The translations under genes and the position numbers were made by a program. A stretch of 64,000 nucleotides of DNA, from the NCBI RefSeq assembly GCF_000026545.1, contig NC_011601.1; one strand, given 5' to 3'. The DNA is from Escherichia coli O127:H6 str. E2348/69 (GTDB taxonomy: Bacteria > Pseudomonadota > Gammaproteobacteria > Enterobacterales > Enterobacteriaceae). The notes beneath the pieces were generated by a model. The model saw only the letters and a program-made list of their open reading frames with translations. It did no database searches and was not told where the DNA came from. Numbering within the stretch: the stretch's first letter is position 1; the number at the start of each line of letters is the position of its first letter. This document shows, in pieces, positions 19,987 through 20,142 of the stretch.

Positions 19987-20062
19987 TGGTGCTGGTTAAC
20001 GGACTTGAACCGCTACCCATTCGCTTACAAGGCGACCGCTCTACCATTGGAGCTAAACCAGC
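19987..20062 (-). tRNA. tRNA-like gene, anticodon UGU (Thr) by manual folding
   Basis: Minus strand folds into cloverleaf: acceptor GCTGGTT/AACCAGC, D-arm GCTC..GAGC, anticodon loop CTTGTAA, T-loop TTCAAGT, 3' ACCA. Confidence 0.55.
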
Positions 20063-20067
20063 ATGTT

Positions 20068-20142
20068 TGGCGGGACAGCGTGGACTCGAACCACGATAAG
20101 AAGGTTAACAGCCTTCCGTAATGACCTTTATACGACTGACCC
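20068..20142 (-). tRNA. tRNA-like gene, anticodon GUU (Asn) by manual folding; one acceptor and one D-stem mismatch
   Basis: Anticodon stem GAAGG/CCTTC with loop CTGTTAA, T-arm CGTGG-TTCGAGT-CCACG, 3' GCCA; mismatches suggest a degenerate phage tRNA. Confidence 0.45.

Follow-up and report, generated by a model that had tools for sequence, protein, structure and literature searches.

P2 Old, a Toprim nuclease, kills lambda-infected cells by cleaving the host tRNA-ThrU and is triggered by interference with RecBCD (PMC12445682, Govande et al. 2025). Cleavage occurs where CNG motifs pair in the anticodon stem (nt 28-30 and 40-42) of a tRNA that stems from the single-copy gene thrU and is the sole decoder of ACA in E. 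coli; the host tRNA-Asn(GUU) is a substrate as well, albeit a slower one (PMC12445682). Phage 21 specifies a tRNA-Thr whose anticodon is UGU (tRNA-Thr21) and that withstands P2 Old and rescues cells expressing Old and Gam: its anticodon stem is shorter and the exchanges C28U/G42A remove the CNG motif, whilst a surplus of host tRNA-ThrU gives no protection (PMC12445682). The rescue is partial, with survivors forming small colonies, and with the related tRNA-Thr6 protection needed an anticodon able to be charged and to decode ACA (PMC12445682). The neighbouring tRNA-Asn of phage 21 and the position of both genes in the late operon go unmentioned in that study (PMC12445682). The PARIS nuclease AriB cleaves the tRNAs for Lys(UUU), Thr(UGU) and Asn(GUU) between positions 40 and 41, and with tRNA-Lys the exchange of U39 to A abolishes cleavage and that of A41 to C inhibits it (PMC12409363); in an AriB screen, tRNA-Lys(UUU) alone was enriched (PMC12445682). 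HepS, another prophage nuclease, cleaves tRNA-Thr isoacceptors in the anticodon loop and is uninformative on stem variants, since its cut falls in that loop.

The DNA analysed here is a 64-kb stretch (the window) comprising a lambdoid prophage of EPEC E2348/69, which extends past the window start. Following the minus strand downstream, the genes are arranged in the order Q, an HNH_3+AP2 ORF, tRNA-Asn, tRNA-Thr, holin S, endolysin and spanins, with the following features (all on the minus strand):

20904..21422, minus strand: late antiterminator Q of the phage 21/Sf6 type (Pfam Phage_antitermQ, 1e-25; RefSeq 'antiterminator Q family protein')
20897..20926, minus strand: late promoter pR', -35 TTGACA at 20926-20921 and -10 CATAAT at 20902-20897 (11/12 matches in the scan)
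20826..20890, minus strand: alternative late leader from the HNH cassette, -10-like TATGCT at 20889-20884, intrinsic terminator with stem 20856-20836 and U-run
20197..20709, minus strand: HNH_3 + AP2 endonuclease ORF, 170 aa (Pfam HNH_3 2e-18, AP2 3e-8; ORF list)
20143..20192, minus strand: retained phage 21/Sf6-type late leader, -10-like TAAGCT at 20191-20186, hairpin 20190-20152, U-run 20151-20143
20068..20142, minus strand: tRNA-Asn(GUU), 75 nt, encoded CCA, discriminator G73 (ARAGORN, Rfam, identity to phage 21/Sf6, covariation)
20063..20067, minus strand: spacer AACAU, 5 nt, from the CCA of tRNA-Asn to +1 of tRNA-Thr (sequence; kept in phage 21 and Sf6)
19987..20062, minus strand: tRNA-Thr(UGU), 76 nt, encoded CCA, G1-C72, C2-G71, A73 (ARAGORN, Rfam, covariation)
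19421..19744, minus strand: holin S, the first late protein gene past the tRNAs (Pfam Phage_holin_3_1, 2e-30; RefSeq)

The initial annotation had placed two tRNA-like genes between Q and the lysis cassette, next to a gene for a homing-type endonuclease, and this arrangement agrees with the Pfam matches for Q, the HNH_3+AP2 ORF (20197-20709) and holin S and with the RefSeq endolysin and spanins; its remark that lambdoid phages often carry tRNAs downstream of Q also holds, the location being typical of lambdoid phage tRNAs. We take it that Stx-phage 933W likewise carries tRNAs downstream of Q, with other anticodons (Ile and Arg).

Across all 64 kb of the window, ARAGORN calls exactly two tRNAs: positions 19987-20062 hold tRNA-Thr(tgt) and positions 20068-20142 tRNA-Asn(gtt), both on the minus strand. 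The initial annotation, which had proposed such a run, had described two minus-strand cloverleaves 5 nt apart with the anticodons UGU and GUU: ARAGORN returns the same coordinates and anticodons, and Rfam is in agreement. Against RF00005, the tRNA-Thr scores 61.2 bits (E=8e-11) and the tRNA-Asn 55.3 bits (E=3e-9), both matching model positions 1-71 of 71 and reaching about twice the gathering score of 29. In the RefSeq annotation of E. coli E2348/69 both genes are listed as tRNA with no pseudogene flag. The 3' CCA is encoded in the genome for each of the two tRNAs, the anticodon loops (CUUGUAA in tRNA-Thr, CUGUUAA in tRNA-Asn) have 7 nt with U33 and a purine at position 37, and the T-arms read GGTTCAAGTCC and GGTTCGAGTCC with a T-loop of the GTTCRA type. 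All of what we take to be the identity elements for ThrRS (G1-C72, C2-G71, G35, U36) can be read in the tRNA-Thr of the window, as can those that we presume for AsnRS (G34, U35, U36, G73) in its tRNA-Asn. The anticodon arm of tRNA-Asn is GAAGG/CUGUUAA/CCUUC, and that of tRNA-Thr is GUCGC/CUUGUAA/GCGAA, in which G27·A43 is unpaired and leaves a stem of 4 bp.

The acceptor-stem and D-stem mismatches that had been reported for the GUU tRNA correspond to U4·U69 and U13·U22 in the Rfam alignment; the G27·A43 at the top of the tRNA-Thr anticodon stem had been overlooked, giving three mismatches in the pair overall. These three non-standard pairs could be taken for early decay, with the pair being a remnant from which chargeable tRNAs are no longer made. 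Some support for such a reading comes from thermodynamic folding, which is unremarkable (z = -1.7 and -1.5 for the two tRNAs, the minimum free energy structure of tRNA-Thr not being a cloverleaf), and from certain relatives that look decayed or rearranged: the second tRNA of ST160, whose anticodon arm is truncated, is not called by ARAGORN and reaches 42 bits, and a few variants from viral contigs carry single deletions or broken pairs. Folding of this kind is not discriminating, and because it is uninformative we took the support for the tRNAs from the covariance model, covariation and homology. The covariance-model scores at about twice the threshold and the readable identity elements both stand against decay.

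Comparison with related sequences points in the same direction. The Asn-Thr cassette is found in 368/5426 complete E. coli genomes (~7%) and in at least 120 viral contigs; between mosaic phages that differ in their holins and Q alleles, the identity of the pair is 99-100%. Amongst the distinct variants from 120 viral contigs, compensatory changes on both sides were found at 6 stem pairs of tRNA-Asn (17 cells) and at 4 stem pairs of tRNA-Thr (14 cells). None of 500 shuffles matched the observed doubly changed cells or the covariation score, for Asn and Thr alike, and pairing was observed in 90-95% of cells as opposed to 21-53% in slid-partner controls. Whilst neighbouring pairs change in a compensatory manner, the mismatches stay fixed: U4·U69 is unpaired in 15/17 tRNA-Asn variants, G27·A43 in 22/22 tRNA-Thr variants and U13·U22 in 17/17 tRNA-Asn variants, although the invariance of the D-arm is by construction, the variants having been collected by a D-arm pattern. 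The anticodon loops are invariant across the variants. In these alignments, the mismatches are conserved lineage features of each tRNA and not signs of decay. The near-identical tRNA-Thr21 is moreover active in vivo (PMC12445682). The suggestion of the initial annotation that the pair might be decaying thus fares poorly against the near-complete identity to phage 21 and Sf6, the wide occurrence, the compensatory changes and the lineage-fixed mismatches, and we regard it as extremely improbable: on the sequence evidence, the Asn-Thr pair consists of two intact tRNA genes that are predicted to be functional.

The pair is not new: it is annotated in E2348/69 and has long been described in Sf6 and phage 21, with Sf6 annotated in the order Q, pR', qut, tR', tRNA-Asn, tRNA-Thr and holin. 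Aligned to phage 21 and Sf6, the pair region matches in 155 of 156 nt: the tRNA-Asn is identical throughout (100%), the tRNA-Thr in 75/76 positions, and the order and the 5-nt spacer are the same; the single difference is G26 in the tRNA-Thr of the window as opposed to A26, and G26 is also present in 10 viral loci. The similarity extends beyond the tRNAs: the type of Q is shared, as are pR' and the tandem 8-mers within it, the tR' hairpin upstream of the pair and the region downstream of it. By these alignments, the pair is the Asn(GUU)-Thr(UGU) cassette that heads the late operon in phage 21 and Sf6 as well as in many other P22-like and lambdoid phages; Q homologues of ~80-100% identity precede it in most related loci. 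The same pair is also annotated in BTP1, SPN9CC, vB_SosS_Oslo, SfI and others. The make-up of the array varies among relatives (Asn alone, Asn-Thr, Asn-Phe-Thr-Arg, Asn-Thr-Gly), and in HK629 the cassette is absent, with ~190 bp of unrelated DNA between identical flanks and the same lysis genes.

The window differs from phage 21 and Sf6 in what lies upstream of the tRNAs. The HNH ORF belongs to a cassette of ~700 bp (20197-20896) that, by alignment to Sf6 and HK629, is inserted downstream of the pR' -10 hexamer and upstream of the old leader; it is present in only 9/120 related viral loci and brings its own leader and terminator. That leader (20826..20890) folds with -21.5 kcal/mol (z = -3.4), its terminator was found by a terminator scan, and the identical sequence of HK629 carries the annotation of a rho-independent terminator. 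The retained leader (20143..20192) folds with -20.2 kcal/mol (z = -5.4) and is the counterpart of Sf6 tR' and of the phage 21 'aRNA' leader, as alignment to the annotated Sf6 terminator/qut and the phage 21 aRNA reveals; its U-run (20151-20143) abuts +1 of tRNA-Asn. Because of the HNH cassette there are two tandem leader terminators, and the tRNAs of the window lie behind both of them at ~750 nt from the promoter, compared to ~50 nt in phage 21 and Sf6. The pR' of the window is identical to the annotated Sf6 pR', and the tandem 8-mers AATTAGCC/ATTTAGCC between its -35 and -10 elements (20917-20902) are likely to be the Q-binding element, a repeat type that has been described for phage 21 and phage L (PMC8022706). 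A promoter scan of the minus strand between pR' and tRNA-Asn gave no promoter-like site, and we found no usable published transcript data for the E2348/69 prophage. The tRNAs are most likely expressed from pR', through the two leader terminators, once Q acts.

In order to relate the pair to the known nuclease targets, we compared the anticodon arms with those of the host tRNAs. The 7-nt anticodon loops of both tRNAs of the window are identical to those of the host. Host thrU has CNG on both strands of its stem (ACUGA/UCAGU) and reads UAAUCA at positions 36-41, whereas in the tRNA-Thr of the window 27·43 is unpaired, CNG is absent (the triplets at nt 28-30 and 40-42 being UCG and CGA versus CUG and CAG) and positions 36-41 read UAAGCG. 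For Asn, host asnT exhibits GCGGA/UCCGU, CNG on both strands and UAAUCC, versus UAACCU and no CNG in the tRNA-Asn of the window. With its UGU anticodon, unpaired 27·43 and U28/A42 in place of C28/G42, the tRNA-Thr of the window resembles tRNA-Thr21, from which it is one base apart (G26), outside of the anticodon stem. The prophage also encodes an Abc2-type anti-RecBCD protein (Pfam), which may be a candidate trigger of P2 Old in place of lambda Gam.

The AriB motif (U36-A-A-U39-C40|N41) is likewise altered, as U39 is missing from both tRNAs of the window and base 41 is changed. In this the pair resembles the escape set of T5, with which it shares two of three anticodons, a base other than U at position 39 and an altered base 41 (T5 Thr UAAGCA and T5 Asn UAAGUU versus UAAGCG and UAACCU). 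However, the two tRNAs are no close relatives of those of T5 in sequence, and the setting differs: T5 is virulent and carries ~25 tRNAs with their own promoters, whereas the prophage is temperate with two tRNAs in a Q-controlled late operon. No tRNA-Lys(UUU), the prime target of AriB, was called by ARAGORN in the 64-kb window, beyond whose start the prophage continues and may hold a further tRNA; the pair should therefore not be counted as a complete anti-PARIS set, and the Asn-Thr pair alone should not be expected to defeat PARIS.

These escape features are not universal among relatives. P1, a temperate enterobacterial phage as well, carries trnA (Asn GUU) and trnT (Thr UGU) adjacent to each other in the same order, with the Thr tRNA ~81% identical to that of the window; the P1 pair differs in lying near ban, plp and tciA, and its Thr keeps CNG and its Asn UAAUCA. 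Klebsiella-type Asn variants (arm GCAGG/CCUGC) have regained CNG. Because the P1 Thr and the Klebsiella-type Asn keep this motif, we hold the escape of tRNA-Asn only tentatively: motif loss in tRNA-Asn could be coincidental, as divergence from the host tRNA tends to bring differences in the anticodon stem in any case.

The initial annotation had offered another role, namely that the tRNAs supplement rare codons needed by the late genes, as has also been suggested for phage L, and the position of the cassette at the head of the late operon suits this role. So does the fact that ACA is read by single-copy thrU only (PMC12445682), as well as the codon choice of the putative major capsid gene (10590-11531), in which AAC accounts for 15/20 Asn codons, a parallel to the 24/25 reported for phage L (PMC8022706). 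The comparison of codon usage that had been proposed with this idea nonetheless found neither ACA nor Asn codons to be over-represented in late genes. Measured against the host flank (the csc region and its neighbours, a possibly atypical sample used in place of a genome-wide codon table), ACA is rarer in late genes, making up 8.8 of every 1000 codons and 15% of those for Thr, compared to 14.1 (26%) in the flank and 13.6 (33%) in the early genes of the phage; the difference to the flank (Fisher p = 2e-4) runs in the opposite direction to that needed for codon supply, and Asn codons, which are not rare, do not differ in frequency from the flank (p = 0.19). E. coli K-12 has four genes for tRNA-Asn, which is hence not scarce. 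Furthermore, HK629 and similar relatives manage without the cassette, with flanks and lysis genes unchanged, and codon supply leaves unexplained why anticodon loops identical to those of the host are combined with stems that are devoid of both nuclease motifs. We therefore consider codon supply as the main role of the pair unlikely; in our analysis the published nuclease-resistance role of tRNA-Thr(UGU) appears to be better supported.

It could also be asked whether the tRNAs matter as tRNAs at all, as the cassette might be a neutral 'moron' spread by recombination between conserved flanks, or might provide RNase P sites that detach a structured leader from the late mRNA. The sharp cassette-like boundaries, exemplified by the ~190 bp of unrelated DNA between identical flanks in HK629, and the variable composition of the array would fit such a passenger, but purifying selection acts upon features specific to tRNAs: the anticodon loops do not vary, and covariation preserves the cloverleaves. 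A processing-site role is disfavoured in particular, because a processing site under selection gives no reason for anticodons to be conserved. In addition, P1 and the T5 escape set, which are unrelated settings, carry these two anticodons too, and a decoding function has been demonstrated for tRNA-Thr21 (PMC12445682). This explanation is accordingly very unlikely in our estimation, if not quite as remote as decay.

We consider it probable that the two tRNAs act as nuclease-resistant stand-ins for host tRNAs with Q-timed late expression. Transcription would start at pR', with the polymerase stopping at the two tandem leader terminators unless Q renders it terminator-resistant, such that the tRNAs would be made mainly late in lytic growth; RNase P and 3' trimming would then free both from the late transcript, as expected from general E. 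coli tRNA biology. The Thr tRNA would decode ACA and, by analogy with the phage 21 tRNA-Thr, both of whose resistance features are present, resist P2 Old, whilst the Asn tRNA may do likewise for host tRNA-Asn(GUU), the slower P2 Old substrate and a secondary AriB target. The net effect would be to keep up late-protein synthesis when OLD-family tRNases of rival P2-like or P4-like elements deplete both isoacceptors, with a modest rise in tRNA supply as a possible side benefit. A broader proposal, which we find plausible but hold with somewhat less than even confidence, is that temperate enterobacterial phages carry the pair as a dedicated counter-defence module of two tRNAs against OLD-family Toprim tRNases (P2 Old, PARIS AriB), in which tRNA-Asn is itself resistant and needed for fuller escape than tRNA-Thr alone can afford, and in which the Q-dependent terminators time delivery such that it falls in the late phase, at a point where host ThrU and tRNA-Asn would already have been destroyed; the P1 pair and a chimeric thrU-like variant in JLK-2012 would then be independent solutions.

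For one member of the cassette, the phage 21 tRNA-Thr, recent work has shown that it overcomes the classic P2-lambda interference; the other, tRNA-Asn, matches a secondary target of P2 Old and PARIS. Were tRNA-Asn to be resistant as well, the cassette would represent a compact and widespread case of replacement tRNAs that temperate phages employ against nucleases encoded by rival prophages and satellites. It would also provide a concrete reason why, at the head of the late operon, lambdoid phages keep these two tRNAs in particular.

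Exactly two tRNA genes were called by ARAGORN across the whole window, both on the minus strand of a lambdoid prophage and separated by 5 nt. Each matches the Rfam tRNA model over its full length (gathering score 29) and encodes its own CCA end. The minus-strand gene order around them is as follows, with the endolysin and spanin genes coming after holin S:

20904-21422, minus: Q (Pfam Phage_antitermQ)
20197-20709, minus: HNH_3+AP2 endonuclease ORF, between Q and tRNA-Asn
20068-20142, minus: tRNA-Asn(GUU) (ARAGORN; Rfam 55.3 bits, E = 3e-9)
19987-20062, minus: tRNA-Thr(UGU) (ARAGORN; Rfam 61.2 bits, E = 8e-11)
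19421-19744, minus: holin S, after tRNA-Thr

The initial annotation had described two such genes, 5 nt apart with anticodons UGU and GUU, between Q and the lysis genes and beside an endonuclease gene, and had proposed ARAGORN as a check: the ARAGORN calls, the Rfam matches and the order of ORFs, RefSeq genes and Pfam domains bear this out. The mismatches that it saw in the acceptor and D stems of the GUU tRNA are also real (U4·U69 and U13·U22 in the Rfam alignment); in tRNA-Thr, the same alignment leaves G27·A43 open at the top of the anticodon stem. Because minimum-free-energy folding did not set either tRNA apart from shuffled sequence, support is drawn from the covariance model, homology and covariation. 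The window matches the genome of E. coli O127:H6 strain E2348/69 at 100% identity, and there RefSeq annotates both genes without a pseudogene flag: the pair is a real feature, already known and annotated.

The window holds most of the prophage, which continues beyond the window start and ends at ~38.2 kb, with host genes from ~38.3 kb; its structural genes extend from the window start to ~17.5 kb (1-17555, minus). This late structural module carries contractile-tail and baseplate annotation (sheath initiator, baseplate, spike, DUF3383/DUF3277) and is joined to a regulatory, replication and lysis region of lambda/P22 type, and hence the prophage is a mosaic. A second HNH endonuclease gene (33437-33904, plus) lies in the early-left operon, between a Rad52-family recombinase gene and ssb (RefSeq).

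The mismatches had raised the possibility that the tRNAs are decaying, which was analysed using 17 distinct tRNA-Asn and 22 distinct tRNA-Thr variants from the viral-contig loci listed. Six pairs of tRNA-Asn (17 doubly changed cells) and four of tRNA-Thr (14 cells) have changed on both sides, and no shuffle (500 per tRNA) reached either the real count of doubly changed cells or the real covariation score. Standard pairs fill 89.9% of Asn and 94.8% of Thr cells, compared with 34–53% and 21–47% when the 3' partner is slid by 1–3 columns. U4·U69 is open in 15 of the 17 Asn variants, even where the adjacent pairs 5–7 have been swapped by double changes, G27·A43 is open in all 22 Thr variants, and U13·U22 is open in 17/17 Asn variants, although the loci were retrieved by an Asn D-arm pattern, which makes that arm invariant by design. 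These mismatches are fixed lineage features and the stems are kept by double changes: the suggestion of decay was wrong for this pair. Decay is seen in some relatives: in phage ST160 the second tRNA (comparison stretch L007, 681-749), after Asn, is not called by ARAGORN, scores 42 bits with Rfam and combines a Thr-type acceptor stem with an anticodon arm truncated by 4 nt. For the corresponding site the phage L paper (PMC8022706) gives the anticodons GUU and UAA (Leu); if the ST160 gene is the same one, it looks like a decayed or repurposed Thr-tRNA derivative and not a normal type II tRNA-Leu.

The other role proposed initially, supply of rare codons for late genes, fares poorly in a codon-usage comparison of late, early and adjacent host genes within the window. 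ACA makes up 8.8 per 1000 codons (15% of Thr codons) in late genes, 13.6 (33%) in early genes and 14.1 (26%) in adjacent host genes; late genes thus use it less than host genes (p = 2e-4), opposite in direction to the prediction from codon demand. Asn codons did not differ significantly between late genes and the host flank (48.9 vs 43.9 per 1000, p = 0.19), and 15 of the 20 Asn codons in the putative major capsid gene are AAC, a common codon read by a multi-copy host tRNA.

The pair belongs to a known cassette. The region is common to 174 phage records, many of which annotate tRNA-Thr and tRNA-Asn there (including Sf6, BTP1, SPN9CC, vB_SosS_Oslo and SfI); tRNAs at the equivalent spot of some P22-like phages, with Asn and Thr of Sf6 cited, have been described (PMC8022706). 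The Sf6 record gives the order gene 59 (Q, 21-like), pR', qut, tR', tRNA-Asn, tRNA-Thr, holin, and labels both tRNAs "similar to phage 21". The tRNA-Asn of the window shows no differences from those of phage 21 and Sf6, and tRNA-Thr differs at position 26 only (G in place of A). A search of 5426 complete E. coli genomes found the pair in 368, and the Asn-Thr arrangement occurs in at least 98 of at least 120 viral-contig loci; among the viral-contig matches listed, other arrays are Asn alone, Asn-Phe-Thr-Arg and Asn-Thr-Arg. In phage HK629 (L002, 1700-1890), ~190 bp of unrelated non-tRNA DNA replaces 19987-20142, whilst the flanks (the tR' hairpin upstream and the conserved pre-holin region downstream) are identical to the window and the lysis genes are shared: the cassette boundaries are sharp and exchangeable, and a lambdoid phage can therefore be viable without the cassette. 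The Asn and Thr pairing recurs in the unrelated temperate enterobacterial phages P1 (L011, 1425-1578) and JLK-2012, the latter with Asn-Thr-Gly and then tciA, which lies near the P1 pair as well. Several HNH endonuclease genes (hegA, hegC-F) are interspersed in the T5 tRNA region (L012, 3246-17063), and phage tRNA clusters seem to be accompanied repeatedly by HNH homing genes, as in T5 and the window.

For expression of the tRNAs at this spot in P22-like phages, the phage L paper poses two options, excision from the late mRNA or an own promoter (PMC8022706). The near-consensus pR' (20926-20897, minus; TTGACA, 18 nt, CATAAT) overlaps the end of Q and holds the tandem 8-mers AATTAGCC/ATTTAGCC between its hexamers, of the type identified as the Q-binding element in phages 21 and L (PMC8022706). 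The leader terminator tR' of Sf6 and phage 21 runs right up to tRNA-Asn position +1. In the window, a ~700-bp cassette (20197-20896, minus) has been inserted exactly after the pR' -10 hexamer, bringing the HNH_3+AP2 gene, its own terminator (20856-20836) and its own leader, in which a -10-like TATGCT has a 7-nt offset equal to that of TAAGCT in Sf6. The old 21/Sf6 leader survives, promoterless, before tRNA-Asn as a hairpin (20190-20152; -20.2 kcal/mol, z = -5.4) with its U-run, resulting in two tandem late leaders. Phage HK629 and the PhiR12 phages carry the same HNH cassette; no isolated-phage record covers at least 80% of the HNH-to-tRNA query, 36 E. coli genomes have the full layout, and at least 9 of at least 120 viral contigs have an HNH homologue upstream of their tRNAs. 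A promoter scan found no other promoter-like site on the minus strand from pR' to the tRNAs. Both tRNAs would be transcribed from pR', and since two terminators lie upstream and no other promoter-like site follows pR', they would be produced chiefly when Q enables polymerase to pass both. The late transcript would then be processed by RNase P and 3' trimming, as in general E. coli tRNA biology, to free the two tRNAs.

At present the pair is best explained as a cassette of replacement tRNAs, resistant to nucleases and placed in the late operon. P2 Old, the Toprim nuclease of P2, is triggered by RecBCD interference and kills lambda-infected cells mainly by cleaving host tRNA-ThrU(UGU), the only tRNA that decodes ACA; within the anticodon stem it recognises paired CNG motifs (nt 28–30 and 40–42) and cuts behind their C, with host tRNA-Asn(GUU) among its slower substrates (Govande et al. 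2025, PMC12445682). A phage tRNA-Thr(UGU) can replace the destroyed host tRNA, a rescue that is partial: tRNA-Thr21 of phage 21 is protective and cleavage-resistant, owing to a shorter anticodon stem and C28U/G42A, whilst added host ThrU gives no protection (PMC12445682). The prophage has a gene for a P22 Abc2-type anti-RecBCD protein at 34421-34714 (plus; PF11043, E = 6e-64), a candidate trigger of P2 Old. AriB, the PARIS nuclease, cuts between 40 and 41 within U36-A-A-U39-C40|N41; U39 to A abolishes and A41 to C inhibits cleavage, and PARIS is neutralised jointly by all three T5 tRNA variants (2025; PMC12409363).

Anticodon arms compared with K-12 thrU and asnT (27-31/39-43; stem; CNG; 36-41)
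Host thrU: ACUGA/UCAGU; 5 bp; paired CNG on both strands; UAAUCA
Window Thr: GUCGC/GCGAA; 27·43 open, 4 bp; no paired CNG; UAAGCG
Host asnT: GCGGA/UCCGU; 5 bp; paired CNG on both strands; UAAUCC
Window Asn: GAAGG/CCUUC; 5 bp; no paired CNG; UAACCU

The 7-nt anticodon loops of both tRNAs equal those of the host, and therefore decoding and loop modification signals are kept; judged by this alignment, the changed part is the stems, where P2 Old and AriB cleave. Compared with thrU, divergence of the window Thr is greatest in the anticodon stem (8/10 positions), ahead of the acceptor (6/14), T (3/10) and D (0/8) stems. For the Thr member, the assignment as a resistant replacement appears solid, given its near-identity to the experimentally tested tRNA-Thr21 (A26, here G26). 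For the Asn member it is plausible, and its motif loss could be incidental because this tRNA diverges from its host counterpart throughout. The prime AriB target is tRNA-Lys(UUU) (PMC12445682) and ARAGORN found no tRNA-Lys in the 64-kb window, so the pair is not a complete anti-PARIS set. Escape features are not universal among related phage tRNAs: unlike the window tRNAs, P1 Thr keeps CNG, P1 Asn keeps UAAUCA and Klebsiella-type Asn variants have regained CNG. The annotated tRNA-Thr of JLK-2012 (L008, 681-753; not called by ARAGORN, 49 bits with Rfam) is a chimera, phage 21-like in its 5' third and host thrU-like in the remainder, whose 3' anticodon-stem strand (UCAUC vs UCAGU) leaves 27:43 and 28:42 unpaired, with the loss of one CNG; it may have arrived independently at these resistance features.
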